Notes: generated by a model not told the origin, from the letters alone. Counted from the stretch's first letter, positions 4,693 through 19,464 are shown. The stretch is 64,000 nt of DNA from a bacterium (GCA_965221165.1 CBDCRP010000002.1:992001-1056000); one strand, 5' to 3'. Program-made: numbers and translations.

Positions 4693-5436
4693 ATGATACG
4701 CAGATACTTCTTACTTTTCGTTTTTTCCCTGCTTTTTCTTTTTATCCCTAACTCTTCCCTGGCAAAGTACAAGGTCGCGCCCACCGCAGGCGGCGGAACC
4801 ATCGCCGGCCGGGTGAGCTTCGAGGGGGATACTCCCGCCCCCGTCAAATACATCATTACCAAGGACCATCACGCCTGTGGCAAAGGCCAGGTCACCCGCC
4901 AGGAGGTGGACGTGAAGGACGGCGCTCTCCGGGGCGTGATTGTCTATCTCCACAAGGTCAAGAAGGGCAAAGCCTTTTCCAAAAAAATCCAGAGCGTCGT
5001 GGTGGACCAGAAGAAGTGCGCCTATGTTCCCTACCTGCAAGTAGTCGCCGAAGGGGGCAAAGTCACCATCCTGAACAGTGACTCTGCCCATCACAACATT
5101 CACACCTACGAGATCATAGGCCGCTCCAAACGGTCCATGTGGAACATCTCTCAACCCAAATTCCGGAAAAAAGTCGTTCGCAAGGCCAAGGTTCGGCGAA
5201 GCCCCATCGTCCGGATCGAGTGTGACGTACACAACTGGATGAAGGGATTCCTCTTCGTGGCCAGGAACCCCTATTACGCGATCGTGAGCGGGGATGGGGC
5301 CTTTCAGATCAAGAATATACCCCCGGGGAAATACTCCCTGCGGGCGTGGCATCCGGCTCTGGGGATCAAGAAGAAAAAGATCACCATTTCCGCCGGTGGA
5401 AAGGAGACTGCCGCCTTCACGTTCTCTTCGAAATAA
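4693..5436 (+). CDS. Exported cupredoxin-like / carboxypeptidase-regulatory-like domain protein with predicted type-1 Cu site
   Basis: Signal peptide, HHNIH followed by CDVHNWM (C-x2-H-x2-M), and C-terminal GAFQIKNIPPGKYSLRAWH beta-sandwich. Confidence 0.7.
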   Translation: MIRRYFLLFVFSLLFLFIPNSSLAKYKVAPTAGGGTIAGRVSFEGDTPAPVKYIITKDHHACGKGQVTRQEVDVKDGALRGVIVYLHKVKKGKAFSKKIQSVVVDQKKCAYVPYLQVVAEGGKVTILNSDSAHHNIHTYEIIGRSKRSMWNISQPKFRKKVVRKAKVRRSPIVRIECDVHNWMKGFLFVARNPYYAIVSGDGAFQIKNIPPGKYSLRAWHPALGIKKKKITISAGGKETAAFTFSSK

Positions 5437-5509
5437 GGCCGGATTTCCGGCCCAGAGGAGACGGATGTCCTATAGGGTATAGAACAGCTAGCTTTGGGAG
5501 GTAGGAAGA

Positions 5510-6616
5510 ATGGATTTAGTTCGCGCTGTCGGGTGTCGGGTGCTGAGCGGAATCCTGCTGACTGCCTGGATTTTTCTTCCTGCCGCGGGCTGGGGTGCTT
5601 CTTTCTCGCCTCTTCCGGCGCCCAAGGCCCAGAAGCCCGCCCGGACCGAGTTGGGCCGGCATCTGTTCTTTGAACCCCGGTTGTCGGGGGACGGAGGGAT
5701 CAGTTGCGCCACCTGCCATCAACCCGCCAAGGGATGGGGCGATGGACAGAGCCTGTCCACGGGCTATCCCGGGAGCAAGTATTTCCGAAACGCGCAGACC
5801 CTCCTGAACGCCACCTACCATAAACGAGTCTTCTGGGACGGTCGTCTGAGCGGGGCCGACCTGCCTACGCTCGTTCGGGATCACCTGACCGAGGCCCACT
5901 TCATGCTGGTTGACGGCCGGTTGTTTCCCGAGCGGCTCAAGCAGATTCCCCTTTATGTGAAGAAATTCAAAGAGGCCTACGGAGGGGAGCCTTCCTTCGG
6001 GGGCGCGCTGAAAGCCATCGCGGCGTTCCTCCATACCATCACCTCCCGGGACGTTCCTTTTGATGAGTATCTCAAGGGCGAGAAAAAAGCCCTTTCCTCC
6101 CAGGCCAAACAGGGCCTCGCCCTGTTCCAGGAGAAGGCCGGATGCGTCCAGTGCCATAACGGAGCTCTTTTGAGCGACGGAGACTTCCATGCGCTCGGCG
6201 TTCCTGAAAACGAGCAGATATTCAAAGATCCGCTGCGCCACATCACTTTCCGCCGGTTCAACAAGGTCATCGGCGTTCCGAATTTCATGAACCTCAGGGC
6301 CGACCCGGGTCTCTACGTCGTGACGAAAGAAGAGAGCGACCGGGGCAAGTTCCGCACGCCGACTTTGCGGGAAGTCGCTCGAACGGCCCCCTACATGCAC
6401 AACGGCGCATTCGCCACGCTTGAGGACGTCGTCGCCTTTTATGACAAGGGCGGCGGCCGCGGCCCCAACAAGAGTCCACGCTTGAAACCCCTGGGCCTCA
6501 AGGCGGATGAGCGTAAAGCCCTGGTGGAATTCCTGAAAAGTCTCTCCGGCGATCCGGTTTCCATGAAGGCGCCGAAGCTTCCCGAATATGAAGTCCGCAA
6601 GCTGGGTGATAATTGA
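5510..6616 (+). CDS. idrP: Di-heme cytochrome c peroxidase family protein (IdrP-like, first copy)
   Basis: Signal peptide, LGRHLFFEPRLS, CATCH, FWDGR, CVQCH, FRTPTLREVARTAPYMHNG; adjacent to idrB/idrA. Confidence 0.85.
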   Translation: MDLVRAVGCRVLSGILLTAWIFLPAAGWGASFSPLPAPKAQKPARTELGRHLFFEPRLSGDGGISCATCHQPAKGWGDGQSLSTGYPGSKYFRNAQTLLNATYHKRVFWDGRLSGADLPTLVRDHLTEAHFMLVDGRLFPERLKQIPLYVKKFKEAYGGEPSFGGALKAIAAFLHTITSRDVPFDEYLKGEKKALSSQAKQGLALFQEKAGCVQCHNGALLSDGDFHALGVPENEQIFKDPLRHITFRRFNKVIGVPNFMNLRADPGLYVVTKEESDRGKFRTPTLREVARTAPYMHNGAFATLEDVVAFYDKGGGRGPNKSPRLKPLGLKADERKALVEFLKSLSGDPVSMKAPKLPEYEVRKLGDN

Positions 6617-6626
6617 GGAGACGGCC

Positions 6627-7766
6627 ATGAAAAGACGAATGAAAAATTGGTTCGTGGGTTCAACGATGGCCGTTTGCTTCATCGCCGTCCTTCTGACGGG
6701 AGGAGCCGGCTCGGCCCAGGAGGGGAAATTCCCTCCCCTGGGACCCCTTCCGCCGGTTCCGGTTCCGGCGGACAATCCCACCTCTCCGGCCAAGGTGGAG
6801 TTGGGCAAGCTCCTCTTTTTCGACGCCCGGTTGTCGGGGGACGCCAGCACGTCCTGCGCCTCTTGCCACAGCCCGGAGAGCGGCTGGGGAGACGGGGGGG
6901 ATCTGAGCCGGGGTTATCCGGGCACGCAGCACTGGAGGAACTCCCAGACAATCCTGAATTCAGCCTATTACGCAAAATTGTTCTGGGCCGGCGAGGTTCC
7001 GAGTCTGGAAGCGCAAGCCAAGAGCGCCGCCACCGGCAACGTGGCCGGGAACGGCGACACCATGATGATGGAGGAGCGTCTGCGCCAGGTGCCGGAGTAC
7101 GTCAAACGCTTTCGCGAGGTATTCGGAGCCGCCTGGCCGACCATCGACGACGCCTGGCGGGCCATTTCTGCCTTCGAGCGCACACTGGTCTCCAGGGCGA
7201 AGGACGTGCCGTTCGACCGCCACATGAAAGGGGACCGCAAGGCGCTTTCAGAAAGCGCGAAGCGGGGGTTGGCTCTTTTTCGCGGAAAGGCCCGGTGTGT
7301 CCAGTGCCATAACGGACCCCTGTTGTCAGACGATGACTATCACAACATCGGCGTTCCCCAAAATCCCGCATTCGAGGAAGACCCCCTGCGGCAGATTACC
7401 TTGCGTTTTCAGCACGTGATTCGGGGAGTACCGGAATCCGTGTACCGAAAGGCGGACCGGGATTTGGGGCTCTACTACACCACCAAGCGCAAGGCCGACC
7501 GGGGGAAGTTCCGTACCCCCAGCCTCCGGGAGCTGAAATACACGGCGCCCTATATGCATAACGGCGCATTTTTCGAGTTGGAAGAGGTCATTGATTTTTA
7601 TGACGAAGGAGGGGGAGAGGACCCGAACAAAAGTCCCCTTCTCAAGAAATTGGGGCTTTCAGACGAGGAGAAGGAGGATCTGCTGGCCTTTCTGCTGTCG
7701 ATATCGAGCGATAAGCCTTTGCTCGTTCAGCCACCTGAACTGCCGCCGTACGCGGCCATGCCGTAA
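6627..7766 (+). CDS. idrP: Di-heme cytochrome c peroxidase family protein (IdrP-like, second copy)
   Basis: Signal peptide, LGKLLFFDARLS, CASCH, CVQCH, FRTPSLRELKYTAPYMHNG; GAGGAG RBS before ATG 6627; paralog of the preceding gene. Confidence 0.85.
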   Translation: MKRRMKNWFVGSTMAVCFIAVLLTGGAGSAQEGKFPPLGPLPPVPVPADNPTSPAKVELGKLLFFDARLSGDASTSCASCHSPESGWGDGGDLSRGYPGTQHWRNSQTILNSAYYAKLFWAGEVPSLEAQAKSAATGNVAGNGDTMMMEERLRQVPEYVKRFREVFGAAWPTIDDAWRAISAFERTLVSRAKDVPFDRHMKGDRKALSESAKRGLALFRGKARCVQCHNGPLLSDDDYHNIGVPQNPAFEEDPLRQITLRFQHVIRGVPESVYRKADRDLGLYYTTKRKADRGKFRTPSLRELKYTAPYMHNGAFFELEEVIDFYDEGGGEDPNKSPLLKKLGLSDEEKEDLLAFLLSISSDKPLLVQPPELPPYAAMP

Positions 7767-7776
7767 GGAGGAATCC

Positions 7777-8319
7777 ATGAGCCACGAAGCCAAGGAAACC
7801 CGGCCTTGCATGTCCCGGCGGGCCTTTCTCCTGACCGGCGGAACCGCCGTGAGCGTGGTGCTGGTTACGGGCATCCCCGGTCTGGCCGGGGCGGCCCTGC
7901 AGAAGGCTGCTTATCCCCGCAAGAGAATCGGCAAGCTCGGCAGTCTCAAGGTCGATGCGCCGCAATACTTCCAATACCCGTGGAAAGACGTCTTCTCGGG
8001 ATGCATGCTGCTCAAGTTGGGTGTCGAGGCCGGCGGCGGCGTCGGTTCCAAGAGAGACGTCGTGGCGTTCAGCACCATTTGCACCCACATGGGCGGTCCC
8101 CTTCAGGGCACCTACAACGGGAAGTACAAGGCCATTGGCCCGTGCCCCTTTCATTTGACGACCTTCGACCTGATGAAGCACGGCATGGTCGCGGCGGGAC
8201 AGGCCACGGAAAGCCTTCCCCAGGTCGTTCTGGAGACCCGTGGAGACGACATCTACGCGATCGGGATGATGGGCCTCATATACGGTTATCACTCAAACCT
8301 TGCGCCGCTACAGCGCTGA
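7777..8319 (+). CDS. idrB: Rieske small subunit of AioAB-like iodate reductase (IdrB), Tat-exported
   Basis: Twin-arginine SRRAFLL, Rieske boxes CTHMGG and CPFHLT, GQATESLPQV, GLIYGY; AAGGAGG RBS. Confidence 0.85.
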   Translation: MSHEAKETRPCMSRRAFLLTGGTAVSVVLVTGIPGLAGAALQKAAYPRKRIGKLGSLKVDAPQYFQYPWKDVFSGCMLLKLGVEAGGGVGSKRDVVAFSTICTHMGGPLQGTYNGKYKAIGPCPFHLTTFDLMKHGMVAAGQATESLPQVVLETRGDDIYAIGMMGLIYGYHSNLAPLQR

Positions 8320-8331
8320 GGAGGACGCACC

Positions 8332-10998
8332 ATGGCAAGAAGTGTGACCAACTACTACCTTGCGGAAGACAGTGTACCCCTCCCGCCGCCGGACGCGGAG
8401 GTTTTCACCACGGCGTGTGACTATTGCATCGTGGGCTGCGGGTACAAGGTGTACCGGTGGCCGGTCGGACGCGAGGGCGGACCCAAGGGCGTGGAGAACG
8501 CCTTGGGCGTCGATTTCCCAACCGGCATGATGAGCGGCGCCTGGATCAGCCCGAACATGCACAACATTATCCTGGTAAACGGTCGCCCCCACCACGTTAT
8601 CGTCATGCCCGATAAGGATTCGAAGGTCGTGAACGTAGGGGGGAACCACTCCATCCGGGGCGGCGTCCTGGCCAAGAAGCTTTTTAATCCCAACGAACCC
8701 TCGCAGGATCGCCTGCGTCAACCGATGATGCGGGTTCGCGGAACCCTCCAGGAGGTTTCGTGGGAAACGGCCCTGGGCGTCATGGCGGGAATCTCGAAAC
8801 ACGTCCTCGATAAGTACGGCGAGCATGCCTGGGCCATGAAGACGTATTCCTATCAGTATTTCGAAAATACATACGCCATCTCCAAGCTCGCTTTCCGCGC
8901 CATCGGGACGCCGGCCTACGCCCCGCACGACAAGCCGGGCCCCGGCCCGGACACGCCCGGGATCGATTTTTCGGGGATCAACCCCTTCAGCGCTTCTTAT
9001 GACGACTGGGGAGAGGCCGAGGTGATCTTCTTCTCCGGCGTCGATCCATGGGAAACCAAGTCGGTCTTGTTCACCTCCTGGATCATGGGAGGGAAAACGC
9101 CCGGCAAGAAGCTCGTCTTCGCCCTTCCCCGGAAGACCACGGGCGTGGCCTACGGTGAGAAACAGGGCGGTCTTTTCCTTCCGGTCATCCCGGGAACGGA
9201 TACGGTGCTTCACCTGGCCATCATTCGCCTGATCCTGGAAAACGGCTGGGAGGATAGGGAGTGGATTGCGCGAAAGTTGGCGAACAAGTGGGAGATAAAC
9301 TCCGGCATGGGGCGCGGAACCCGCAACACGCCGTGGCAGTGGGTCACGACCTGGGGCAAGTACGGGACCGACTTCGACGGCTACAAGAAGTGGATTCTAA
9401 GCTACCCCTACGCCGAGTTGGACCAAGCCGCCAAGATTACGGGCGTGTCCGCGGCATCCATTCGGAAGACCGCTGAAATACTGGCCAAGCCCAAACCCGA
9501 CGGGACGCGCAAGAAAACCTCGTTCATGCTCGAGAAGGGAAATTACTGGTGCAACAGTTTCGGGAACACGGCTTCCTTCGCGGCCCTCGGGCTGGTTTGC
9601 GGCGCCGGGTCGCGGCCAGGCCGTGTGATTTCCCGCGGAGGGGGGCATCAACGGGGCTGGATGGGCGCAGCCGGTTACCCGAGGAGCCTGTCTCCGGAGA
9701 AGGCGCCGGGACGCCGCAAGAAGGAAATCGATCTGGACCGGTGGGTCGTGGACGGCCACGTCCGCTTTGCATGGGTCATCGGAACCACCTGGTGTCAAGC
9801 CATGGCGGCTTCTCAGGAACTGATGGACGTCTTCCAGCGATTGACTCGCCACAATCCCCATCAGATCGATAGCTTCGACGTTGATGCGGCGGTGAACGCG
9901 CTCAAGCGACGTGCGGACGCCGGCGGCATGGTTGTGGCCCACCAGGACATTTACCCTGTTTCTCCGATCGGAACCGAGTATGCGGATCTGGTGCTTCCGG
10001 CCGCCACCTGGGGCGAGGAAGACTTTACCCGGTGCAACGGCGAGCGTCGCCTCAGGCTGTACAGCAAGTTCGCCGATCCCCCCGGAGAGGCCAGGCCCGA
10101 TTGGTGGATCATCGCAGCGTTCGCCAGGAAGATGGGATTCAAGGGTTTCGACTGGAAAGACAGCAACCAAATCTTCGAGGAGGCGGCCCGCTTCGGACGC
10201 AAGGGGGTACTCAACTACCATCCGCTCGTGGTGAAGGCCAAGCGCGAGGGGAAACGGGGCCACGAATTGCTCCGCGAATACGGGACCGGCGGCATTCAAA
10301 CCCCCATACGCATGGTCAAGGGAGAACTCGTCGGGACGAAGCGGCTCCATGATGAAACCCTTGAATTGGGAACCCCGGAAGGCCCCACGATGCACAGGAA
10401 ATGGCTCACCTCCTTCGGGACCCAGAGCGGCAAGGCGGTTTTGCTGAAAAGCTACTGGGAGGACTTCAAGGATTTCTACGATCGGGTTACTCCGCAAGGA
10501 GACGAGCTGTGGGTGACGAACGGCCGGATCAACGAGCTGTGGCAATCCGGCTACGACGACAAGCGGCGGCCCTATATCATGCAGCGCTGGCCTCAGCAGT
10601 TCCTGGAAATTCACCCGCAAGACGCCCGCGCCCGCGGCATCGAATCCGGAGACCTCGTGGCTATCGAGAACGACGACCTGCTCGTGCAGACGGGAGGATA
10701 CATCGGCGTCGACGGCAAGGAGCAGACGTTTACCGAGCTGATGAAGGCCGGACGAATCAAGAAAAGCAAGGGGAGCTTCACCGCGGTGGCCATCGTCACG
10801 GATGCGGTTCGGGCGGGCGTCACCTTCGCCTATTTCGGCTTTCCCGAAAACCCGGCCAATTCGGTGGTTCACCGGGTGCCGGACCCCCTGACCAACCGCT
10901 ATCGCTATAAGCTGGGCAAGGGGAAGTTGAAGAAGATTGGAGAATCTCCGCACAAGCATTCCCTGACGAGTCTTAGTTTCGTTCCCCGGACGCTTTGA
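8332..10998 (+). CDS. idrA: DMSO-reductase-family molybdoenzyme, arsenite-oxidase-like iodate reductase catalytic subunit
   Basis: [3Fe-4S] motif CDYCIVGC, VPLPPPDAEV, NHSIRGG, YSYQYFENTYAISKL, GRGTRNT, EKGNYW, GGGHQRG, NGERRLRLY and a C-terminal molydopterin-binding domain. These resemble IdrA as I recall it, and the two adjacent peroxidases fit Idr rather than Aio. Confidence 0.85.
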   Translation: MARSVTNYYLAEDSVPLPPPDAEVFTTACDYCIVGCGYKVYRWPVGREGGPKGVENALGVDFPTGMMSGAWISPNMHNIILVNGRPHHVIVMPDKDSKVVNVGGNHSIRGGVLAKKLFNPNEPSQDRLRQPMMRVRGTLQEVSWETALGVMAGISKHVLDKYGEHAWAMKTYSYQYFENTYAISKLAFRAIGTPAYAPHDKPGPGPDTPGIDFSGINPFSASYDDWGEAEVIFFSGVDPWETKSVLFTSWIMGGKTPGKKLVFALPRKTTGVAYGEKQGGLFLPVIPGTDTVLHLAIIRLILENGWEDREWIARKLANKWEINSGMGRGTRNTPWQWVTTWGKYGTDFDGYKKWILSYPYAELDQAAKITGVSAASIRKTAEILAKPKPDGTRKKTSFMLEKGNYWCNSFGNTASFAALGLVCGAGSRPGRVISRGGGHQRGWMGAAGYPRSLSPEKAPGRRKKEIDLDRWVVDGHVRFAWVIGTTWCQAMAASQELMDVFQRLTRHNPHQIDSFDVDAAVNALKRRADAGGMVVAHQDIYPVSPIGTEYADLVLPAATWGEEDFTRCNGERRLRLYSKFADPPGEARPDWWIIAAFARKMGFKGFDWKDSNQIFEEAARFGRKGVLNYHPLVVKAKREGKRGHELLREYGTGGIQTPIRMVKGELVGTKRLHDETLELGTPEGPTMHRKWLTSFGTQSGKAVLLKSYWEDFKDFYDRVTPQGDELWVTNGRINELWQSGYDDKRRPYIMQRWPQQFLEIHPQDARARGIESGDLVAIENDDLLVQTGGYIGVDGKEQTFTELMKAGRIKKSKGSFTAVAIVTDAVRAGVTFAYFGFPENPANSVVHRVPDPLTNRYRYKLGKGKLKKIGESPHKHSLTSLSFVPRTL

Positions 10999-11049
10999 TG
11001 GAGATGGATGCTTACAAACCCGTAGAACCGTGAGGGAGGTTGAAAACGA

Positions 11050-11430
11050 ATGACTCGATCGAGAAGCTTTTTCATCTGCGCCATCGGCGTACTCGGAATG
11101 GCGATCTTTTTCTGGTCCTCTAATGACGGCGTCGCTCAGCAAAAAGGCGACGCTGCGGCCGGCAAGGTCAAATACCAGCAGCTTTGCGCCTCCTGCCACG
11201 GGGCGAAGGGCAAGGGCGACGGTCCCGCTGCCGGTGCGCTCAACCCGAAACCCAGAAATCACACGGACGCCAAATATATGAAGACCATATCGGATGAGTA
11301 TATCGCCAAGATCACCAAGCTAGGCGGCGTCGCGGTAGGGAAATCGCCGTTGATGCCCCCCTGGGGCGGAGTTCTTTCGGACCCGGACGTCCGAAACGTA
11401 GTCGCATTCATTCGCTCCCTGGCGAAATAG
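11050..11430 (+). CDS. Periplasmic mono-heme class I cytochrome c
   Basis: Signal peptide, CASCH, KGDGPAA..LNPKPRN and distal Met in MPPWG. Confidence 0.9.
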   Translation: MTRSRSFFICAIGVLGMAIFFWSSNDGVAQQKGDAAAGKVKYQQLCASCHGAKGKGDGPAAGALNPKPRNHTDAKYMKTISDEYIAKITKLGGVAVGKSPLMPPWGGVLSDPDVRNVVAFIRSLAK

Positions 11431-11434
11431 GAGC

Positions 11435-13492
11435 ATGGGGATGGATTCAGGGAATCGGGATACTCTCCCCCCCGAGCGCTCCTTTCGGGTCGAGTTGCCC
11501 GGCCACGACCACTGGCGGAAAACGATTTCTTGCCAGGCGGCCTGTCCCGTCCATACGGACGCGCGGGGTTACGTGACCGCAATCTCCGAGGAGGACTTTG
11601 AGCGTGCATATATCATCGCCCGGGGACCAAACCCCTTTGCGTCCGTTTGCGGACGCATCTGTGCGGCGCCGTGCGAAGCGGCCTGCCGCCGCGGCAACAT
11701 CGACGCGCCGGTGGCTATCCGGGCGCTCAAGCGATTCGTAACGGAGCGCTACGGGGTAGAGGCCGATTTGTCGTCCGGAAAGAGAGAAACCCCCTTCTCG
11801 CACCGGAGCCTCGGGAGTCTGCGCGATCTCCGTTTTCAGCCCTCCACACGCACCATCAACGATTTCTCGGTGCTGGAGGCGGCCCGCCGGAAACCCGAAC
11901 AGGGAAAGACGGCGGGGAAAAAAGTGGCCGTCGTCGGATCGGGTGTAGCGGGGTTGACTTGCGCCCACGATCTCGCCTTGCTCGGCTATGACGTGAGCGT
12001 TTTCGAAAAGCAGGGAGTCCCCGGAGGCATGCTGATGCTCGGGGTTCCTGAGTACCGGCTTCCGCGCGATCTCGTTCAGGCCGAGATCCAGGCCATACTC
12101 AGCCTGGGTGTGGAGCTACGACTGAACAAAGCCATCGGGCGAGACTTCGACCTTTCCGCTCTTCGCGAGGAAGGCTTTGAAGCGGTGTTCATCGCCATCG
12201 GCGCTCATGTAAGCCGCAGCCTTCCCGTGGAGGGGCGGGACGCAGACGGTGTTTTCCGGGCCGTTGAATTTCTGCTGAACGTGAATCTGAATTTCCGCGT
12301 CGAATTGGGTGAGCGCGTCGTCGTGATCGGCGGGGGAAACGTGGCCATGGACGCCGCCCGGGTCGCCGCCCGGGTCGCCGGTCAGGCGGATGTTCCCTCG
12401 AGCGTGAGCGATCAAACGGAGGACGCCGTCCACATGCGGGAAATGATGGACGTGGCCCGGCAGGCGATGCGCGTAGGAGCGAGGAGCGTCCATGTCGTCT
12501 GCCTGGAATCCCGCGATGAGATGCCGGCGTCGGATTTCGAGATTGAAGAAGCGCTGGGTGAAGGGATCGAGATCGAGCCTCGGGTGGCACCCATTCGTAT
12601 TGTAGAGAACGGGGGCCGGGTGGCCGGGCTGGAAGTCCACACATGCACCCGTGTCCGTGACGAAGAGGGCCGCTTCAGTCCGGAATTCGAACCCGGCACC
12701 AATCGCGTGATTCCGTGCGATTCGGTAATCGTAGCCGTCGGCCAGTCCTCCGACCTGTCCTGGATCGGCGAGGAGGACGGCATCGAGACGACGCCGCGAG
12801 GGACAATCCGTATAGATCCCCAAACCCTGGCCACAACCGCACCGGGCGTGTATGCGGGAGGAGACGTTGCCCAGGGCCCCCGGATCTTCATTGAAGGGGT
12901 GGAAAACGGCCACCGGGCCGCTCGCTCCATCCACACCTATCTTTCAGGCGGCCAGGTCAACGTCCAGACCCATTTTCAGTGGGCCCCCATCGAACCCTTG
13001 CGGCAAGCGCTGCTTCAGGAGCCGGGAGATGGATTTTCGCTCCCCATCGTCAATCCCGGCTACCAGAAAACTTCCCGGCGAAACCCCGACGCGCTGCCCA
13101 TCGAGCGCCGAATCGGCGTCGCCGAGGTGGAACTGGGCTATTCGCCCGGGGAAGCGGTCGATCAGGGAGTCCGGTGCCTGCGCTGCAGCGCGAATCCGAT
13201 CTTCGACGGCGCCAAGTGCATCCTGTGCGGCGGTTGTGTGGACGTCTGCCCGTCACGCTGCCTTCGAATGGTTCCTCTGGAAGCCCTTCAGGGAGGAGAG
13301 GATCTGGCGGCTTTGATCCGCACTCGCTACGGGACGTCCGCCGGGGGCGCCGGAGAGGTGGGAAGAGGCGCGGCCATGATCATGGATCCGGACGCGTGTA
13401 TCCGTTGTTCGCTCTGTGTGCAGCGTTGTCCCACGGGCGCCGTCACCATCGAGAATTTTTCTTTCCAGGAAGAATGGGTGGAGCTTGGATGA
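11435..13492 (+). CDS. FAD/NAD(P)-dependent Fe-S oxidoreductase (GltD/NfnB/DsrL-like) with C-terminal 2[4Fe-4S] ferredoxin
   Basis: CQAACPVH...CGRICAAPCEAAC, GSGVAG, GVPEYRLP, IGGGNVAMD, AGGD, RCLRC, CILCGGCVDVCP, CIRCSLCVQRCP; no signal peptide. Confidence 0.88.
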   Translation: MGMDSGNRDTLPPERSFRVELPGHDHWRKTISCQAACPVHTDARGYVTAISEEDFERAYIIARGPNPFASVCGRICAAPCEAACRRGNIDAPVAIRALKRFVTERYGVEADLSSGKRETPFSHRSLGSLRDLRFQPSTRTINDFSVLEAARRKPEQGKTAGKKVAVVGSGVAGLTCAHDLALLGYDVSVFEKQGVPGGMLMLGVPEYRLPRDLVQAEIQAILSLGVELRLNKAIGRDFDLSALREEGFEAVFIAIGAHVSRSLPVEGRDADGVFRAVEFLLNVNLNFRVELGERVVVIGGGNVAMDAARVAARVAGQADVPSSVSDQTEDAVHMREMMDVARQAMRVGARSVHVVCLESRDEMPASDFEIEEALGEGIEIEPRVAPIRIVENGGRVAGLEVHTCTRVRDEEGRFSPEFEPGTNRVIPCDSVIVAVGQSSDLSWIGEEDGIETTPRGTIRIDPQTLATTAPGVYAGGDVAQGPRIFIEGVENGHRAARSIHTYLSGGQVNVQTHFQWAPIEPLRQALLQEPGDGFSLPIVNPGYQKTSRRNPDALPIERRIGVAEVELGYSPGEAVDQGVRCLRCSANPIFDGAKCILCGGCVDVCPSRCLRMVPLEALQGGEDLAALIRTRYGTSAGGAGEVGRGAAMIMDPDACIRCSLCVQRCPTGAVTIENFSFQEEWVELG

Positions 13493-13493
13493 C

Positions 13494-13985
13494 ATGACTG
13501 CGAGCCTGGATGAATCGACCCCCCGGCGGCGGATGCTTTTGGGTCTCGGCTGGGTTTCCTTCCTGGTCTCCCTGCTGGGTCCGGTTCTCGCCAACGTCCG
13601 GTTTTTGTTCCCCAACGTCGTTTATGAAGGCGAGGCAGTTCTGAAACTCGATTCCCTGAAGAAGTACCCCGTGGGTTCCATCACGTTTTTTGCAGAAAAA
13701 AAAGTGGTTCTTTTCCGTGAAAAGGACGGATTTAGGGCCTGTACGGCCGTCTGTCCCCATCTTCGTTGTGTGATTGGTCCCTTCGTCGGGGCGCCCGGGG
13801 CGTCTCCTGATATTTTAAGGGCCCGGTGCCCGTGCCACGGCAGCACTTTCGACGGCCGGGGACAGGTGCTCGGGGGGCCTGCGCCTCGAGGACTCGATTT
13901 TTTCCTCGTAACGAAATCGCCGGATGGCCGCGTCGTGGTCGATACGCGCAAAGTCGTCGGTCCCTCCGAGCATTTCAGACTCTGA
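13494..13985 (+). CDS. Rieske Fe-S subunit of a Rieske/cytochrome b complex
   Basis: RRRML plus TM anchor, CPHLRC and CPCHGS boxes, GPAPRGL. Confidence 0.88.
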   Translation: MTASLDESTPRRRMLLGLGWVSFLVSLLGPVLANVRFLFPNVVYEGEAVLKLDSLKKYPVGSITFFAEKKVVLFREKDGFRACTAVCPHLRCVIGPFVGAPGASPDILRARCPCHGSTFDGRGQVLGGPAPRGLDFFLVTKSPDGRVVVDTRKVVGPSEHFRL

Positions 13986-13994
13986 GTCGACATC

Positions 13995-15491
13995 GTGGCT
14001 ATTGAACCCCCACCGAAATCAGGGCGCAGAAAAGCCGCATCCTGGATTAGGGACAACCGCGTAGTCCGCTCGATCTTCCGCCGCGGCTACCCGGACAACG
14101 ATCTGGACCGCTCGGCGGTCATGTTCTCTAATTTCTTCCTTCACGTCCTTCCCGCGCGAACACACGTCAACAGCCTGAAGCCCACCTACACCTGGGGGCT
14201 CGGCATCATCTCTTTTTTCCTCTTTCTCATTCTTACGGGCACCGGCTTTTTGCTCATGTTCTTCTACGTCCCTTCGACCGAACGCGCCTATAACGACATG
14301 AAAGACCTGCAATTCGTCGTCTCCTACGGCATTGTCTTGCGAAACCTCCATCGCTGGGCTGCCCATGCGATGGTCGCCATCGTCTTTTTGCACATGTGCC
14401 GGGTGTTCTACACGAGCAGCTATAAAGCGCCCCGTGAGTTCAACTGGGTTATCGGGGTGCTCCTCTGGGGGGCGACCCTGATGATGAGCTTCACGGGCTA
14501 TCTGCTCCCCTGGGATCAACTCGCCTATTGGGCCATCACCGTCGGGTCGAGCATCGCCAGCTATCCGCCCCTGGTTGGAGAATACATTCGCACCCTGATG
14601 CTCGGAGGCGACACGGTGGGGCAAAACGCCTTGATCCGGTTTTACGTCATGCATGTCGTGGTCCTGCCGGGCATTATGCTCATACTCATGGGCGTCCATT
14701 TCTGGCGGATTCGCAAAGACGGGGGCCTCTCTCGTCCACCCACGGAGCCCCTGAAGGCCGCTGTAGGCAAGTCGGCGGCTTTTTCGCCGCACAAGACATA
14801 CATGCTCGTGGAACTGGCGGAAGGCAAAACGCCCATGGTGGATGCCCAGGCCCCGGAGGAAGAGGTCATGAGTTGGCCTCACACGGTTTTCAGAATGCTG
14901 GTCGTCTTCGTGGGAGTCGTGGCGGTTCTCTCCGCCGTCGCCTATTTTTTCGATGCTCCTCTGGAGGAGTTGGCCAACCCCGAGCATCCGCCCAACCCCG
15001 CCAAAGCCCCCTGGTACTTCCTTGGACTTCAGGAAATCGTGAGCTATTCCGCTCTGGCGGGAGGCGTCATCGTTCCCGCCGCTGCGATTATCGGCCTCAT
15101 GAGCATTCCCTACATAGACCGCAACCCGGAGGGCCAGGGAAATTGGTTCACCTCACACCAGGGTCGGCGGATTACGCTTGGGTCGGTCCTGGCGATTATT
15201 CCGGTCGTCCTCATCCTGACCTATCTGAACGAGCACTACGCCGTGCGGAAGCTGGTTCCGGGCGCTCCGCAAATCTGGGTCGACCTCTTGAATCCGGGGA
15301 CCATACTGATCGCTCTGTTCGCCGTCGGGTCGCTTTACACCTGGCGGCGGACGGGGTCGAGCCGGATGGGGGCCTTGGCCTTGTATTCTTATTTTCTGAC
15401 GTCTTATGTGATTTACACGATCATCGGGCTTTATTTTCGTGGAGCCAACTGGGCCTGGATATGGCCGTGGCAGGCCATGGGCCTGCACTGA
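13995..15491 (+). CDS. Cytochrome b (b6 and subunit IV regions in one chain) of Rieske/b complex
   Basis: LHRW...[25 protein letters not shown]-x14-H in helix D ([17 protein letters not shown]) and Qo motif variant KAPWYF; extra C-terminal helices. Confidence 0.9.
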
Positions 15492-15503
15492 GGCCGATAA
15501 CGA

Positions 15504-16307
15504 ATGACGAATTCAACGCAGAATAATTCCTATGTACCGTTCGGGTGGGTGGTCGCATTCGCCGTGCTGAGCGTGTGCGCGGCCTTATTCTTTCTGCTGT
15601 CCGTCTGGAAGGATTACGACCGCGAATGGAGGGGCTATCAACGGACGTTCCGTGAAATGCTCGTCGCAAGAACAGAAAGCGAAGAGGAGCGTAAAACCGT
15701 TCTGGCGAGCGGAGATCAATTCGAGCAGATCATCGTGGACCGAGGCGAGCGCGTAGACAGGTGCGTCATGTGCCATCGGGGAATCGAGCACCCGGCGTTT
15801 CAGGGCGCCGCTCAACCCTTCGCCAGCCATCCCTCCATCCCGCTGCATCCCTTCGAGCAATTCGGTTGCACCGTGTGCCACCAGGGCCAGGGCAGGGCGA
15901 CGACCCTTCAGGATGCCCACGGAGAAGTCCGGTTCTGGGAGGAGCCGCTCCTCCGGGGAGGGTTCATTCAAGCCAGTTGCGGTCCGTGTCACGCAGGCGT
16001 TTTGAAAGAGGCCCCTCTCATTCAGAAGGGAAAGCTGCTTTATCTGATGAACGGCTGCATCGCCTGCCACAAAATCAGGGGAGCCGGCGGGGTTGTCGGG
16101 CCCGACCTGACGTTTGCGGGGGAGCGCCGGAAAGACCCGAAATGGCACATCGAACATTTCAAGGCCCCGCAAAGGGTTTCTCCCGGATCCGCCATGCCCG
16201 CCTACACCCACTTGTCGCCGGCGGACCTCGAAGCGCTGACGGTTTACATGTTGAGCCTCCGCAGGGCCCCTTCCGCCTTGGCGCTGGCTGCACCCAGAAA
16301 AAAATAG
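15504..16307 (+). CDS. Membrane-anchored tetraheme cytochrome c
   Basis: N-terminal TM helix; CVMCH, CTVCH, CGPCH, CIACH; C-terminal GPDL...SAMP class I domain. Confidence 0.88.
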   Translation: MTNSTQNNSYVPFGWVVAFAVLSVCAALFFLLSVWKDYDREWRGYQRTFREMLVARTESEEERKTVLASGDQFEQIIVDRGERVDRCVMCHRGIEHPAFQGAAQPFASHPSIPLHPFEQFGCTVCHQGQGRATTLQDAHGEVRFWEEPLLRGGFIQASCGPCHAGVLKEAPLIQKGKLLYLMNGCIACHKIRGAGGVVGPDLTFAGERRKDPKWHIEHFKAPQRVSPGSAMPAYTHLSPADLEALTVYMLSLRRAPSALALAAPRKK

Positions 16308-16334: not shown

Positions 16335-17699
16335 CTAGTTGAGCAGCACCCTCGGTAGCCACATGGCGATGCCGGGAAAGGCCATGACCAGCCCCAGCCC
16401 GATGAGTTGGAGAATCACGAAGGGGATGATCCCGCGATATATCTGCGAGAGGCGCACCTGGGGCGGCGCTACCCCCTTCATGTAGAACAGCGCGAAGCCG
16501 AAAGGCGGGGTCAGGAACGATGTCTGTAGGTTGACCGCCATCAGAATCGAGAACCAGTAGATGACCTCGCTCTTGGGCAGGTGGTCGCCGAAGTCCAGCC
16601 CGGCGAGGATCGGCGCAAACACCGGGAGCACGATGAGCGTGATCTCGATCCAGTCGAAGAAGAACCCGAGGAAGAACGTCACCGCCATCAGGATCCCCAG
16701 GATTCCCCAGGGGTTGACCCCCACGGAGTAGATCACGTCCTTGATGAAGTCGTCGCCGCCGAGCGAGCGGAAGACGTAGGAGAAGGCGGTCGCCCCGACG
16801 AATATGAAGAACAGCATCGCGTTGGTGAGCGCGGTGCGCTCGACCACGTCCTTCAGGACCGAGAAGTTCAGCTTGCGGTTGAAGATGGCGAGCAGAGTCG
16901 CTCCGGCCGCGCCGACCCCTGCCGCTTCGGTGGGCGTCGCCCAGCCGAGGATGATCGACCCCAGGACCAGGACGATCAGAAACACCGCCGGCACCAAGCC
17001 TTTGAGCAACATCAGGATCAGTTCGTTTGGCGTCTGTGGACCCATCTCCTTGGGCAGGCGCGGCGCCAGGGAGGGATTCACGGCGCACCGCGTGAAGATG
17101 TAGACGAAATAGAGCCCGGAGAGGATCAGGCCGGGGAAGATGGCCGCGACGAACAGGGTTCCCACCGAACGCCCGAGAAGATCGGCCATGATGACCAGCA
17201 TGATGCTGGGCGGTATCAGTATCCCGAGCGTGCCCGAGGCGGCGATGGTGCCGGTCGAGAGCTCCATGTTGTATTTGCGCTCGACCATGACCGGCAGCGC
17301 CATCAGGCTGATCATCACGACCGAAGCGCCGATGATGCCGGTCGTCGCCGCGAGGATCGTCCCCATGACCGTGACCGCGAGCGCCAGCCCGCCCGGGGTG
17401 CGGCGCAGCACCACCTGGAGGCAGTACAGGAGGTTGGCGGCGACGCCGGAGCGTTCCAGCATCGTCCCCATGAAGATGAACATGGGGATCGCAACGAGAA
17501 CCAGGTTGTCGGCGAAACCCCAGATCCGGAGCACGAGGTTGAAGAACTCGATTTGGGAGAAGACATCGAAATACATGCCGATAAAGCCGAAGGCGAGCCC
17601 CACGCCGCCCAGTACGAATCCGACCGGGAAGCCCGAGAACAAGAGAGTCGCCAGGGTGAGGAACATGAAGGCCGGCAGGTAGTCCTCGACATAGAACAT
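16335..17699 (-). CDS. dctM: TRAP transporter large permease
   Basis: AIPMFIFMG, GTLGILIPPSI, ATPTEAA, NLQTSFLTPPFGFALFY. Confidence 0.92.
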   Translation of the reverse strand: MFYVEDYLPAFMFLTLATLLFSGFPVGFVLGGVGLAFGFIGMYFDVFSQIEFFNLVLRIWGFADNLVLVAIPMFIFMGTMLERSGVAANLLYCLQVVLRRTPGGLALAVTVMGTILAATTGIIGASVVMISLMALPVMVERKYNMELSTGTIAASGTLGILIPPSIMLVIMADLLGRSVGTLFVAAIFPGLILSGLYFVYIFTRCAVNPSLAPRLPKEMGPQTPNELILMLLKGLVPAVFLIVLVLGSIILGWATPTEAAGVGAAGATLLAIFNRKLNFSVLKDVVERTALTNAMLFFIFVGATAFSYVFRSLGGDDFIKDVIYSVGVNPWGILGILMAVTFFLGFFFDWIEITLIVLPVFAPILAGLDFGDHLPKSEVIYWFSILMAVNLQTSFLTPPFGFALFYMKGVAPPQVRLSQIYRGIIPFVILQLIGLGLVMAFPGIAMWLPRVLLN

Positions 17700-17711
17700 G
17701 CGCAGGCGCCC

Positions 17712-18290
17712 CTAGCTCGGCCCGATCTGGTCGATCTGTTCGGTCGCGTGCTCTTCCTTTTTGGGGAGGAGTTGGCGAAGGTCCGGTGGGCCGAACAGCT
17801 CGATGATCTTGCGCAGCAGGACGGTGATCCCCGACAGGAGCAGGACGAACAGCCCGATAGGCAGGCACGCCTTGATCGCCCAGCGATAGGGAAGGCCGGT
17901 CGCGGAGTCTGAGGCCTCGCCGACGGCCCATGATCTCTCGACGAAGTCTTCGGCGAAATAGACGACAATCAGGCAGTAGGGGATCACGAACACGATGCAG
18001 CCCACGAACTCGACCCAATCCCTGGCGCGCGAACTCAACCGCTCACGGATCAGGTCGATTCGCACGTGGGCGTCGTTGAGATAAGCGAAGCCTATACACA
18101 GCAGGAACAATAGCGCGTGCAGGTGCCACTCGCCTTCCTGCAGCTTGGTCGATCCCAGCACCAGGAAACGCCGGGTCACGACGTCGAAAATGATGACGAC
18201 CATCAGCGGAATCGAGAACCACGCGCTGACTTTACCGACGCCGATCACGATCCGGGCCAGAAACTCTTGCAATTGAAACAGATGCCGCAT
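17712..18290 (-). CDS. dctQ: TRAP transporter small permease
   Basis: Four TM segments with QEGEWHL, HVRIDL, SATGLP. Confidence 0.88.
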   Translation of the reverse strand: MRHLFQLQEFLARIVIGVGKVSAWFSIPLMVVIIFDVVTRRFLVLGSTKLQEGEWHLHALLFLLCIGFAYLNDAHVRIDLIRERLSSRARDWVEFVGCIVFVIPYCLIVVYFAEDFVERSWAVGEASDSATGLPYRWAIKACLPIGLFVLLLSGITVLLRKIIELFGPPDLRQLLPKKEEHATEQIDQIGPS

Positions 18291-18317
18291 CAATGGGCTT
18301 CCTGGCGCAACATACGC

Positions 18318-18359
18318 GAAAAAGGCGCCGGAACCGTGACCGTTACGGTTCCGGCGCCT
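18318..18359 (-). terminator. Intrinsic terminator-like hairpin between dctP and dctQ
   Basis: On the minus strand aggcgccggaaccgt-aacggtc-acggttccggcgcct is followed by a T run. Confidence 0.7.
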
Positions 18360-18402
18360 GTACTGTGGTCAAGCGGAACGGCGGAGCGCCGTCACATCGG
18401 TC

Positions 18403-19464
18403 TTACTTGAGGTAGCCGAGGTCCTTCCAGACCGCGTATTCCTTACGGAAGGCGCTGTAGGATTCCCAGACCTTCTTGAAGGTCGCGTCGCGCTTGGCGT
18501 CGGCGGCCGCGACTTCGGCCCACTTCTCCTCGAGCGTGTCCAGGATTGACTGGGGCCAGCGATGGATTGTCACGCCCTTCTTTTTGAGTTCGACCAAAGC
18601 CTTGCCCTGAATGGCCTCGCCCTCGGCGAGCCCGTCTCGGAACGCGTCGCCGCACGACACCTCAATCTGCGCCCGCTGGGTGTCGTTGAGCGCATCCCAT
18701 TTCTTTCTGTTCAGCAGCAATTCAAATACCGTCGACTGCTGGTGCCAGCCGGGGAAGTAGTAGTGCTTCGCCACCTGGTAGAAGCCGAGATTGAGGTCGA
18801 TAGCGGGCATCGAGTATTCGGTCGCGTCGATCGAGCCGCGCTCGAGCGCGGGGAAGATATCGCCGCCGGCGATGAGTTGGGTGGATACGCCCACTTTTTC
18901 CATCACCTTGGCGCCGAGTCCAAAGAAGCGCATCTTCAGGCCCTTCAGGTCGTCGATGCTCTTGATTTCCTTGCGGAACCAGCCCGACGCTTCGGGCGCG
19001 ATGACGCCGCAGGGTATCGATTTCAACCCGTGTTTCTTGTAAATCGCATCCCAGAGCTCATAGCCGCCGCCGTAGAAAATCCAGCCCATATACTCTCCGG
19101 CTCTGGGTCCGAAGGGGACGGCCGCGAACATCGCGAGCGCCGGCTCCTTGCCGTACCAGTAACCGGGCGTCGACCAGCACGCATCGACCGAACCCGCCGC
19201 AACGGCGTCGAAGCACTCCTTGGCCGGGATCAGCGCGTTGGGCTCGAAGAACTTGATTCTGATATTGCCGCCGGAAACCCGTTCCAGACGGTCGACCATG
19301 GCTTTGCCCATCGAGCCGAGCTGGGTCAGGTTGCTCGGGAACCAACTCGCCATTTTCCAGCGTATGCGCTTCGCGGCGTCCGCATCGCCGACACCCGACG
19401 CCATCAGCGTGACGCTCAACGCACAGATCATAAATCCGATCGTCGTAAGTTTCCTGATCGCCAT
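18403..19464 (-). CDS. dctP: TRAP substrate-binding protein (DctP/TakP-like, monocarboxylate/2-oxoacid type)
   Basis: Signal peptide, RWKMAS, GWFRKEI...LKGLKMR, LERGSIDATE, YYFPGWHQ. Confidence 0.9.
   Translation of the reverse strand: MAIRKLTTIGFMICALSVTLMASGVGDADAAKRIRWKMASWFPSNLTQLGSMGKAMVDRLERVSGGNIRIKFFEPNALIPAKECFDAVAAGSVDACWSTPGYWYGKEPALAMFAAVPFGPRAGEYMGWIFYGGGYELWDAIYKKHGLKSIPCGVIAPEASGWFRKEIKSIDDLKGLKMRFFGLGAKVMEKVGVSTQLIAGGDIFPALERGSIDATEYSMPAIDLNLGFYQVAKHYYFPGWHQQSTVFELLLNRKKWDALNDTQRAQIEVSCGDAFRDGLAEGEAIQGKALVELKKKGVTIHRWPQSILDTLEEKWAEVAAADAKRDATFKKVWESYSAFRKEYAVWKDLGYLK

Follow-up and report, generated by a model that had tools for sequence, protein, structure and literature searches.

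A conserved bacterial operon joins a flavoprotein-bearing Rieske/cytochrome b complex to probable iodate reductase genes

The closest described counterparts of the complex analysed here come from anammox bacteria, and are represented by Kuste4569-4574 and Kustd1480-1485 of Kuenenia stuttgartiensis (Kartal et al. 2013, as reported in the available text of PMC12954380). Quinol-driven reduction of NAD(P)+ by these complexes remains a proposal in that text, and an alternative role has been suggested for them (de Almeida 2016, as cited in the accessible part of PMC5600118). That same part of PMC5600118 records the co-occurrence of the flavoprotein module with cytochrome b outside planctomycetes (Dibrova 2017). 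A further comparison is offered by iodate reductase, which the idrP-P-B-A gene set separates from arsenite oxidase (PMC10989891; available portion of PMC8692401), and for which the published model, as given in that portion of PMC8692401, names the housekeeping bc1 complex, together with a soluble cytochrome c, as the source of electrons.

Within a 64,000-nucleotide stretch of bacterial DNA (hereafter the window; GCA_965221165.1, CBDCRP010000002.1:992001-1056000), we analysed an operon of ten genes whose last four lie at 11435-16307. The first of these four (11435..13492, + strand) adjoins the Rieske and cytochrome b genes and was assigned by domain searches to a 685 aa flavoprotein with NfnB/GltD-type Fe-S motifs; it is predicted to be cytoplasmic, and hydropathy analysis found no hydrophobic or transmembrane segment in it. 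Its Pfam domains, Fer4_20 (residues 31-105), Pyr_redox_2 (162-485) and a 4Fe-4S dicluster (594-669), give a layout of N-terminal Fe-S domain, FAD site, NAD(H) site and C-terminal 2x[4Fe-4S], a sequence signature for a protein with FAD, at least 4 Fe-S clusters and a site of the NAD(H) type. Alignment of relatives revealed three additional invariant Cys residues, C581, C584 and C609. The flavoprotein also contains 'VVCLESRDEMPAS', which presumably stands at the place of the GltD YRR motif; LES would then align with YRR, with Glu-Ser where GltD has Arg-Arg, such that E358 would take the position of the 2'-phosphate-binding Arg. E358 is invariant among the aligned relatives, and the residues of this site point to a preference for NADH over NADPH.

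The AF2 model of the flavoprotein (pLDDT 86) found its best fold matches among NfnB-type modules (9bov_A, 9n5u_A, 8oh5_C, 5jca_L and 4ylf_B), with dihydropyrimidine dehydrogenase (DPD) also among the matches; the solved structures closest to it in sequence and fold come from the electron-bifurcating complexes NfnABC, StnABC and NfnAB, of which they are subunits. Its N-terminal Fe-S, FAD and NAD(P)H domains resemble those of NfnB, of the 'A' subunits of NfnABC and StnABC, and of GltD, while its C-terminal dicluster domain resembles that of DPD. In contrast to NfnB, GltD and DPD, the flavoprotein has no NfnA, GltB or FMN-domain partner (a domain search of the operon genes found neither an NfnA nor a GltB gene), and its gene always lies beside Rieske/b genes. 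Automatic annotation names its relatives glutamate synthase beta subunit-like or formate dehydrogenase beta subunit.

The TGA stop codon of the flavoprotein gene (13490-13492) is followed by a single base and then by the ATG, at 13494, of a gene for a 163 aa Rieske 2Fe-2S subunit (13494..13985, + strand; Pfam Rieske, 6e-11). Hydropathy analysis identified an N-terminal hydrophobic segment in this subunit that serves as its predicted membrane anchor, and its boxes read CPHLRC and CPCHGSTF, with the Ser kept and the Tyr position occupied by Phe. The next gene (13995..15491, + strand) encodes a fused, unsplit cytochrome b of 498 aa that matches Pfam Cytochrome_B and, weakly, Cytochrom_B_C. It consists of a b6-like four-helix part and a subunit-IV-like part, in which hydropathy alone places 4-5 hydrophobic segments after residue 290. 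Helix D has the b6-type spacing H220-x14-H235, and helix B the spacing common to all bc and b6 proteins, H119-x13-H133; all four haem ligands are invariant among the cytochrome b relatives. His50 is likewise invariant, and is present also in the second cytochrome b of the genome, which has no flavoprotein. The haem-cn Cys is absent from its expected position, where the window protein reads '...TYTWGLG' and the second cytochrome b 'FTWCMGG', and was found in only 3 of 56 relatives. In place of the usual PEWY the window protein has 'KAPWYF', and all of the fused cytochrome b relatives (16/16) have APWY. Both APWY and the missing haem-cn Cys are family traits rather than oddities of the window. 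The original prediction had described the domains of the 685 aa flavoprotein, its 1-bp distance from the Rieske gene, and an unsplit b6-type cytochrome b with APWY for PEWY, all of which are seen in the sequence; it was also right that the haem-ci/cn Cys is missing, but not in its exact alignment, as the column of the Cys corresponds to the G that follows W rather than to W itself.

The last of the four genes (15504..16307, + strand) encodes a membrane-anchored tetrahaem cytochrome c of 267 aa, with four CxxCH motifs and, by hydropathy, one N-terminal transmembrane segment. Neither a cytochrome c1/f subunit nor the PEWY Qo motif was found in this set; tetrahaem c and APWY occur instead. Compared with the cytochrome b6f/plastocyanin system, the window complex shares the H-x14-H spacing in helix D, the succession of a four-helix cytochrome b and a subunit-IV-like part and, in many loci, a cupredoxin-type carrier encoded with the module. 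It differs from b6f in lacking cytochrome f and haem cn, in having APWY rather than PEWY, and in its added cytoplasmic flavoprotein; it would moreover be respiratory, whereas b6f is photosynthetic.

The anammox complexes are closer, having in common with the window a Rieske protein, a b6-type cytochrome b, a multihaem c, a cytoplasmic NfnB/GltD-type flavoprotein, and a subunit-IV-like part with >3 helices. The flavoproteins are homologous over their full length, a comparison made with Scalindua loci: the second Rieske/b operon of a Scalindua genome encloses a flavoprotein 32% identical to that of the window (residues 16-679), and the window protein is 44% identical to the flavoprotein of Scalindua's module of the same kind. 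In a quick tree, the 32%-identical protein branched beside the family together with one other paralogue. These sequence relationships support a complex of the anammox type, in agreement with what had been predicted. The Ser/Phe pair of the window Rieske protein is shared with Kustd1480, which was measured at +335 mV (available text of PMC12954380). Similarly, a conserved His occurs in the n-side stretch at the N-terminus of cytochrome b, where the anammox AlphaFold3 models described in that text place an extra haem; by analogy, the region of His50 may be equivalent to that position, making His50 a candidate ligand. Differences are likewise evident: cytochrome b and subunit IV are fused in the window; the haem-cn Cys is missing, whereas the available text of PMC12954380 lists haem cN; the window c is tetrahaem, compared to six or eight haems for the anammox subunits in the same text; the gene order is flavoprotein-Rieske-b-c, with no HAO-like subunit; and the partner is an Idr-type molybdoenzyme in a host that is not an anammox bacterium.

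The operon begins with a gene (4693..5436, + strand) for a 247 aa periplasmic, cupredoxin-like protein with an N-terminal hydrophobic segment and a Sec-type signal, which is likely a soluble electron carrier judging from its homologues, all of which (36/36) have the ligand pattern His...C-x2-H-x2-M. A Scalindua homologue scores 24.0 bits against a Pfam Copper-bind cut-off of 21.2, while the window protein itself has Pfam matches only to fn3_3/CarboxypepD_reg, toward its C-terminus; in 29 of 67 loci a homologue is encoded immediately upstream of the flavoprotein. Next come two idrP-like genes of the dihaem cytochrome c peroxidase/MauG family, ~50% identical to one another and each with two CxxCH motifs (5510..6616, + strand, CCP_MauG 2.1e-41; 6588..7766, + strand, CCP_MauG 5.4e-43). 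They are followed by genes for an AioB/IdrB-type Rieske small subunit (7777..8319, + strand; Tat signal SRRAFL), an 888 aa AioA/IdrA-type molybdopterin subunit with an N-terminal 3Fe-4S domain (8332..10998, + strand; Pfam Rieske_3 at 1.5e-35, Molybdopterin and Molydop_binding), and a monohaem class I cytochrome c of 126 aa with a signal peptide, seen as an N-terminal hydrophobic segment, and one CxxCH (11050..11430, + strand; Cytochrome_CBB3/Cytochrom_C). The AioB/IdrB-type ORF is listed from 7591, and the ATG at 7777 is its likely start. Neighbors among the ten genes overlap by as much as 29 nt (6588/6616) or stand up to 73 nt apart, and the spacing around the four core genes is 4, 1, 9 and 12 nt. 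All ten genes occur in identical order in 12 of the 15 related regions fetched; the other three end at contig edges and are consistent up to there. As read from its genes, this operon combines the flavoprotein-Rieske/b module and an idrP-P-B-A-type cluster with genes for a cupredoxin-like protein and a cytochrome c.

Does the flavoprotein belong to the complex, and is the molybdoenzyme an iodate reductase? To address linkage, relatives of the flavoprotein (41-92% identity) were picked by sequence alone. Rieske and cytochrome b genes lay directly downstream in 56/56 public loci with at least 1500 bp of downstream sequence, and in 47/47 with at least 4000 bp, 43 of which had the multihaem c homologue following cytochrome b as well. 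The loci span >10 phyla, with 2 of the 56 from the window's own genus, and the adjacency is far beyond chance; a general absence of such linkage, named beforehand as evidence against the complex, is contradicted. It is highly improbable, then, that the flavoprotein is an unrelated neighbor such as a glutamate synthase small-subunit paralogue: the automatic names cited above would fit that view, but linkage in every locus and the 1-nt gap to the Rieske gene argue against it, as do the scores under every NCBIfam cut-off (PRK12771, 441.8 bits against 516, the best; gltA, 283.1 against 471.75; gltD_gamma_fam, 214.9 against 482.95), the lack of a GltB gene nearby, and a separate GltD-like gene in the genome (C2:906723-908174). 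The flavoprotein has no close paralogue in its own genome, where it sits at one of two Rieske/b loci. Docking of its C-terminal part with cytochrome b, suggested originally, gained weak support: with residues 506-685, cytochrome b as a monomer and 3 controls, the score was 0.44 compared to 0.00 for the best control. Of 157 solved complexes, 116 reached the mark used; among 215 mismatched pairs, 2 did. Scores <=0.60 that reached it came from 18 of the 157 solved complexes plus both passing mismatches; the runs shared at least 72% of contacts, with partner pLDDT of at least 74. On the strength of gene content and topology, we regard 11435-16307 as encoding one respiratory complex of four parts, with the flavoprotein on its predicted cytoplasmic side and tetrahaem c on its predicted periplasmic side. 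It belongs to a known and widespread kind, and the rarity implied by the original prediction was overstated.

The upstream molybdoenzyme is probably an iodate reductase with the AioA/IdrA-type gene encoding its catalytic subunit. The genes present and their order agree with published iodate reductase clusters (PMC10989891; available portion of PMC8692401), and the P-P-B-A order is that of the Ca. Methylomirabilis iodofontis cluster (PMC10989891). With idrABP1P2 of Pseudomonas sp. SCT, Denitromonas sp. IR-12 and Ca. M. iodofontis the cluster analysed here shares an AioA-like Mo subunit that bears a 3Fe-4S domain, a Rieske subunit exported by the Tat route and a pair of dihaem cytochrome c peroxidases; unlike these, it has its own flavoprotein-bearing Rieske/b complex, cytochrome c and cupredoxin-like protein. 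Rokubacteria and NC10 MAGs contain relatives of the molybdoenzyme with 75-78% identity. A true arsenite oxidase, with the complex taking As(III) electrons via cytochrome c in reverse or acting as a plain bc complex during arsenite oxidation, is unlikely. AioA and AioB do exceed the NCBIfam arsenite oxidase cut-offs (TIGR02693, 454.9 bits against 359; TIGR02694, 119.2 against 95.65), every named relative is automatically annotated as such, and an ArsP-family permease lies 6 kb downstream. No iodate reductase model was among the NCBIfam matches listed for these subunits, however, so the arsenite oxidase label is expected either way. Moreover, two peroxidase genes lie just upstream of aioB/aioA in all 12 full-length related regions, two KSB1 loci also keep two dihaem peroxidase genes before aioB/aioA, and in the available portion of PMC8692401 published neighborhoods place such peroxidases with IdrA, not AioA. 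The very high-potential acceptor proposed originally is plausible, to the extent that the upstream genes represent an idrP-P-B-A set.

We tentatively favor, at somewhat less than even confidence, bifurcation of menaquinol to iodate and NAD+, the direction of flow being our inference; that the complex is the private electron supply of the Idr-type periplasmic enzyme is, from gene content, about as probable. Menaquinol would be oxidized at the Qo site, with the downhill electron passing from the Rieske center through tetrahaem c and cytochrome c or the cupredoxin to IdrAB and iodate, and the other crossing haems bL and bH and then following the Fe-S chain to FAD, where NAD+ would be reduced. The uphill step would be paid for by the large drop to the high-potential acceptor, analogous to the anammox proposal, and the NADH could return to complex I, which by our reckoning would keep more energy than an ordinary Q cycle. 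In support, the genome has futalosine-pathway menaquinone genes, with no Ubi hydroxylase over cut-off, as well as two NuoD genes; the Ser/Phe pair of its Rieske protein is that of Kustd1480; and the idrP-P-B-A set and order suit the acceptor side. Against it, the molybdoenzyme passes the arsenite oxidase models, the docking support is weak, His50 recurs in the cytochrome b that has no flavoprotein, many bacteria with the module look like heterotrophs that would have no evident reason to make NADH from quinol, and complex I, encoded in the genome, already lets NADH be made or used by other routes. The NAD(H)-type site with its invariant E358, furthermore, fits entry of electrons as well as exit, and NADH is the usual catabolic donor. 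FAD might instead oxidize NADH, passing electrons through the Fe-S chain and haem bH to menaquinone at an n-side site, with quinol then oxidized at Qo in a Q cycle toward tetrahaem c and the Idr enzyme. The result would amount to a built-in NADH dehydrogenase for a private bc complex. This direction we consider rather doubtful. Cytochrome b retains its Qo motif and all four b-haem ligands, which would still allow a normal Q cycle, and the module is common in mostly organotroph lineages beside varied terminal reductases (NosZ at 3 loci, molybdoenzymes at 11 and COX1 at 1). Such a route, however, would save less energy than complex I working with a bc complex, has no need of the high-potential-type Rieske signature of this menaquinone user, and sits poorly with the rarity of the haem-cn Cys, the residue that forms the n-side quinone site of b6-type complexes. 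It is very unlikely that the NfnB-like FAD itself splits the NAD(P)H pair, sending one electron down to the b haems and quinone and the other up via Fe-S to ferredoxin. The kinship with NfnABC, StnABC and NfnAB speaks for it, and C581, C584 and C609 could hold a further cluster, but the domain search found no ferredoxin gene or NfnA-like partner in the operon, and the order of N-terminal Fe-S, FAD/NAD and C-terminal dicluster is that of DPD, in which the clusters form one wire rather than two branches. A single path is likewise traced in the anammox AlphaFold3 models (available text of PMC12954380).

What distinguishes the window is a conserved operon uniting a flavoprotein-Rieske/b module with probable iodate reductase genes. 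Menaquinol bifurcation, the reading we prefer, may extend to an iodate-driven NAD+ reductase that splits menaquinol at Qo and recycles NADH via complex I, with the module acting as a general 'supercharged Q cycle', a possibility we hold with less confidence. If true, menaquinone-using bacteria would attach this module to non-pumping, high-potential periplasmic reductases, such as those for iodate, N2O and nitrate/nitrite.

The flavoprotein gene (11435-13492, +) belongs to a run of ten genes packed tightly on the plus strand at 4693-16307, with neighbouring genes overlapping by up to 29 nt (6588/6616) and lying at most 73 nt apart. Its 685-aa product carries the Pfam domains Fer4_20 (residues 31-105), Pyr_redox_2 (162-485) and a 4Fe-4S dicluster domain (594-669); a sequence scan found neither a signal peptide nor a hydrophobic segment, and no NCBIfam model reached its cut-off, the best being PRK12771 (441.8 bits vs 516). 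The TGA stop codon (13490-13492) is separated by a single base from the ATG of the Rieske gene (start 13494, +), whose product is anchored at its N-terminus and carries the boxes CPHLRC and CPCHGSTF. The cytochrome b gene (13995-15491, +) encodes a single 498-aa protein consisting of a b6-like part and, after it, a subunit-IV-like part, with haem ligands H119-x13-H133 and H220-x14-H235, a Qo motif of APWY and no Cys at the haem-cn position. The APWY count omits 15 rows, for which the regular expression for the PEWY position had matched xRFY in helix D. The last gene of the operon (15504-16307, +) encodes a cytochrome c with an N-terminal anchor and four CxxCH motifs. These features establish the parts of the module and their predicted sides of the membrane, and they agree with what the original prediction described at 11435-16307 apart from two small corrections. 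The H-x14-H spacing it reported holds for helix D only, the spacing in helix B being x13; the haem-ci Cys is indeed absent at TWGLG, and with the second cytochrome b of the genome as reference the Cys position corresponds to the G following W. The fused cytochrome b has His as its final residue (codon 15486-15488) in 13 of 16 aligned relatives, mostly within W-P-x-H, while two of the other three end earlier and one is cut by a contig end. This His could be a metal or haem ligand.

We scanned one genome per GTDB species with an alignment of 15 flavoprotein relatives. Relatives were encoded by 436 stretches; from the best 80 came 71 loci, 41-92% identical, whose hosts, judged by record titles, included Acidobacteriota, Bacteroidota/Ignavibacteria, Chloroflexota, KSB1, Zixibacteria, Planctomycetota (incl. 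Ca. Scalindua), Binatota, Calditrichota, Kiritimatiellia and others. Loci were picked by flavoprotein sequence alone, and neighbours were then sought by tblastn. Within this set from the best 80 of 436, Rieske and cytochrome b genes lay directly 3' of the flavoprotein gene in 56 of 56 loci with at least 1500 bp downstream, two of which are from the window's own genus, and in 47 of 47 with at least 4000 bp downstream. A multihaem c homologue was present too in 43 of these 47 loci, and gene order was Rieske-b in 43 loci and b-Rieske in 4. The genetic linkage of the flavoprotein and Rieske/b genes is obligate; the original prediction would have been refuted by flavoprotein homologues generally lacking such linkage, and the 56 linked loci decisively show the opposite. 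The window's genome has two Rieske/b loci, with the flavoprotein at one and no close paralogue of it elsewhere in the genome. The second locus (contig C3, 369-371 kb) encodes a split cytochrome b with a CxGG motif and lacks the flavoprotein.

Docking of the flavoprotein on cytochrome b, a check that the original prediction called for, received weak support when full-length cytochrome b (16-row alignment, as a monomer) was modelled with flavoprotein residues 506-685, the score being 0.44 compared to 0.00 for the best of 3 controls. Of 157 solved complexes, 116 attained the docking mark, as did 2 of 215 mismatched pairs; with scores of 0.60 or less it was attained by only 18 of the solved complexes, and by both of the passing mismatches. 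The runs shared at least 72% of contacts, with a partner pLDDT of at least 74. This modelled result is consistent with binding, and given the strong prior from synteny it adds little.

A model of the flavoprotein built from a 70-row alignment (mean pLDDT 86, pTM 0.87) was poorly defined only at residues 1-12 and in an insert at 317-347. The top sequence and fold matches were NfnB-type modules of the electron-bifurcating enzymes NfnABC (9bov_A, 9n5u_A) and StnABC (8oh5_C), followed by NfnB (4ylf_B, 5jca_L) and then by dihydropyrimidine dehydrogenase and GltD. Six Cys residues of the N-terminal domain (C33, C37, C72, C76, C80 and C84) are invariant, and the C-terminal domain contains two CxxCxxCxxxCP motifs. 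Outside both ferredoxin motifs, C581, C584 and C609 (window 13175-13261) are likewise invariant in 70 flavoprotein sequences, and could be ligands of a further Fe-S cluster. The family has L-E-S, with Glu358 invariant, at what is presumably the position of YRR in GltD. By the usual Rossmann-fold rule, this invariant Glu suggests that the flavoprotein prefers NADH over NADPH.

For over a decade, discussion of Rieske/b complexes that carry a cytoplasmic NAD(P) oxidoreductase has centred almost exclusively on anammox bacteria, which are difficult to culture and cannot be genetically manipulated. The complex type itself is not new (Dibrova et al.). A 2025 paper on the Rieske proteins of Kuenenia (PMC12954380) describes Kuste4569-4574 and Kustd1480-1485 as resembling b6f and containing a subunit-IV-like protein of five helices, cytochromes with six or eight haems and an NAD(P) oxidoreductase on the cytoplasmic side, with Rieske potentials of +303 and +335 mV and a proposed role in NAD(P)H production by quinol bifurcation. 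The same paper reports an AlphaFold3 prediction of an extra haem b between the two cytochrome b monomers. In place of Kuenenia sequences, our sequence comparison used one Scalindua genome (via locus L084). One of its loci holds a module of the window's type whose flavoprotein is 44% identical to that of the window. A second holds an operon of two cupredoxin-like genes, Rieske, cytochrome b, flavoprotein and a subunit-IV-like gene, the flavoprotein being 32% identical across residues 16-679. The window's Rieske protein shares the Ser plus Phe signature of Kustd1480; of 60 family loci, 56 have CPCHGS and 51 have both Ser and Phe. His50 lies near the N-terminus of cytochrome b, in a segment on the n side, and is conserved in 55 of 56 relatives, the 56th lacking residues there; the anammox model places the ligand of the extra haem in the same segment. 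As a marker of flavoprotein-linked complexes His50 was rejected, being present also in the genome's second, flavoprotein-less cytochrome b.

A quick maximum-likelihood tree of 35 flavoprotein rows, whose deeper order is unsure because of long branches, recovered the window's family as a clade with SH-aLRT support of 98. The sister of this clade is a Scalindua protein (locus L110, G041:C83, 8174-10249) in which an NfnB-like core plus dicluster domain is fused to an MvhD/FlpD domain, and no Rieske/b genes were found within 8 kb of it. The operon-embedded Scalindua flavoprotein branches next (SH-aLRT 90). The KSB1 flavoprotein was not sister to the window's.

All ten genes occur in the same order in 12 of 15 related regions, the other 3 being cut by contig ends, and this order is kept inside the genus and once outside. 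Of the 22 other genomes in the genus, 14 carry the flavoprotein, and a homologue of 76% identity occurs in a single genome from a different family of the same class (NCBI label 'Nitrospinota bacterium'). The only relative outside the genus with the full operon is locus L024 (G029:C29), where the cytochrome b frame (12467-13960) stops at a TAG six codons short of the window protein's end. Idr-type genes were found in only 4 of the 47 distant loci that extend 7 kb or more upstream, two from the window's genus and two from KSB1. When Pfam was run on 64 of 154 large neighbouring ORFs (34 loci), the module's partners elsewhere included NosZ (3 loci), molybdopterin enzymes (11 loci), one haem-copper oxidase subunit (1 locus) and sigma-54 regulators (6 loci). 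Nar-like neighbours, too, were seen in some of these loci. Because different partner enzymes lie beside it across loci, the module behaves as a portable quinol-oxidising unit joined to varied periplasmic terminal enzymes. The sigma-54-dependent regulator genes lie 5' of the module in several phyla (loci L030, L035, L040, L053, L056 and L062) and adjoin histidine kinase genes in L030, L035, L040 and L056. In the window, scans for promoters (2 promoter-like sites vs 3.2 expected) and terminators (18 vs 13.3) did no better than chance, leaving a promoter-like site at 4633-4662, before the first operon gene, without weight. A search for sequencing runs returned two DNA-type entries from one study and no RNA.

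The window's genome (3.69 Mb, 96% complete, 8.5% contamination) contains futalosine-pathway menaquinone genes and two NuoD genes, and has no ubiquinone hydroxylase over cut-off. A nitrite oxidiser was considered and rejected, the best NXR-type molybdoenzyme scoring 140 bits vs a TIGR03479 cut-off of 984.75, and RuBisCO not being found in the genome at that completeness. An exact copy of ~697 bp links window ~10804-11500 with ~626.4-627.2 kb on the same contig (G000:C2; locus L100, ~8488-9185). It takes in the final 67 codons of the AioA/IdrA-like gene and the complete cytochrome c gene, and runs to codon 22 of the flavoprotein gene; at L100 it lies directly 5' of a Nap-like cluster encoding a dihaem c, an 879-aa NapA-like enzyme, NapG, NapH and NapG. 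The copy could be a true duplication that donated the cytochrome c gene, or an assembly artefact. Downstream of the operon, a TRAP transporter on the opposite strand (16335-19464) is followed, 5-7 kb from the operon, by genes for a DehI-like protein (21019-22086, -) and an ArsP_1-family permease (22279-23835, +), the latter being the sole arsenic-flavoured gene noticed near the AioA-like enzyme. Further on, a HipA-like kinase gene overlaps a HipB-like HTH gene (24982-26794, -), probably as a toxin-antitoxin pair.

Upstream of the module, the operon encodes a secreted cupredoxin-like protein (4693-5436, +), two dihaem CCP/MauG-family peroxidases (5510-6616 and 6588-7766, both +), an AioB-type Rieske protein with a Tat motif (likely start 7777, +), an AioA-type molybdoenzyme (8332-10998, +) and a monohaem cytochrome c (11050-11430, +). 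Pfam matched the cupredoxin-like protein only to fn3_3/CarboxypepD_reg, and Copper-bind was not hit. In 29 of 67 loci a homologue lies directly 5' of the flavoprotein gene, and all 36 homologues that cover the region (loci L026-L096) conserve the ligands typical of type 1 copper sites, as His...C-x2-H-x2-M; a Scalindua homologue passes Copper-bind at 24.0 bits (cut-off 21.2). Idr-linked copies read CD[VA]HN[WF]M, and most others C[NRK]VHPEM. A blue copper carrier beside a b6-like complex recalls plastocyanin with b6f. That the molybdoenzyme is an arsenite oxidase might seem to follow from its two subunits, both of which exceed the NCBI arsenite oxidase cut-offs, and from its relatives at 75-78% identity in Rokubacteria and NC10 MAGs, all auto-named arsenite oxidase. 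The gene set and its P-P-B-A order are the same as in iodate reductase clusters, such as idrP2-P1-B-A in Ca. Methylomirabilis iodofontis (Zhu et al., PMC10989891), and Reyes-Umana et al. (PMC8692401) reported that the peroxidase genes accompany IdrA, not AioA. We regard the arsenite oxidase as improbable.

With a probable iodate reductase as partner, the direction of electron flow that we tentatively favour, by analogy and at a little less than an even chance, is the quinol bifurcation of the anammox-type model. The flavoprotein would dock on the n side of cytochrome b, its Fe-S chain linking FAD to haem bH. Menaquinol (about -75 mV) would be oxidised at Qo, the first electron passing through a high-potential Rieske centre to iodate, whose potential is roughly +0.7 V. 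Because the drop from menaquinol to iodate allows a very low-potential bL, the second electron could pass from bL to NAD+ (-320 mV). NADH returning via complex I would then yield more protons per electron than a normal Q cycle, which, we argue, would explain the module's pairing with non-pumping periplasmic reductases. The main rival, in which electrons from NADH enter bH and the quinone pool, uses the same partners and strikes us as rather unlikely. Flavin-based bifurcation to ferredoxin appears quite improbable. That the flavoprotein is an unrelated neighbour is hardly credible, and synteny contradicts it.

We found no open-access paper in which idr genes are tied to a Rieske/b-flavoprotein complex. 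The window presents an anammox-type complex connected to another, well-defined acceptor system of high potential, the Idr-type cluster, in a menaquinone organism. Bifurcation, if true, would add a quinone-based route to NADH, and would change how the energy yield is worked out for respiration of iodate, N2O and similar acceptors; NADH entry, if true, would define a widespread shortcut around complex I. Under either direction, the linkage to idr genes suggests that iodate respiration is commoner, and differently wired, compared to the proteobacterial models.
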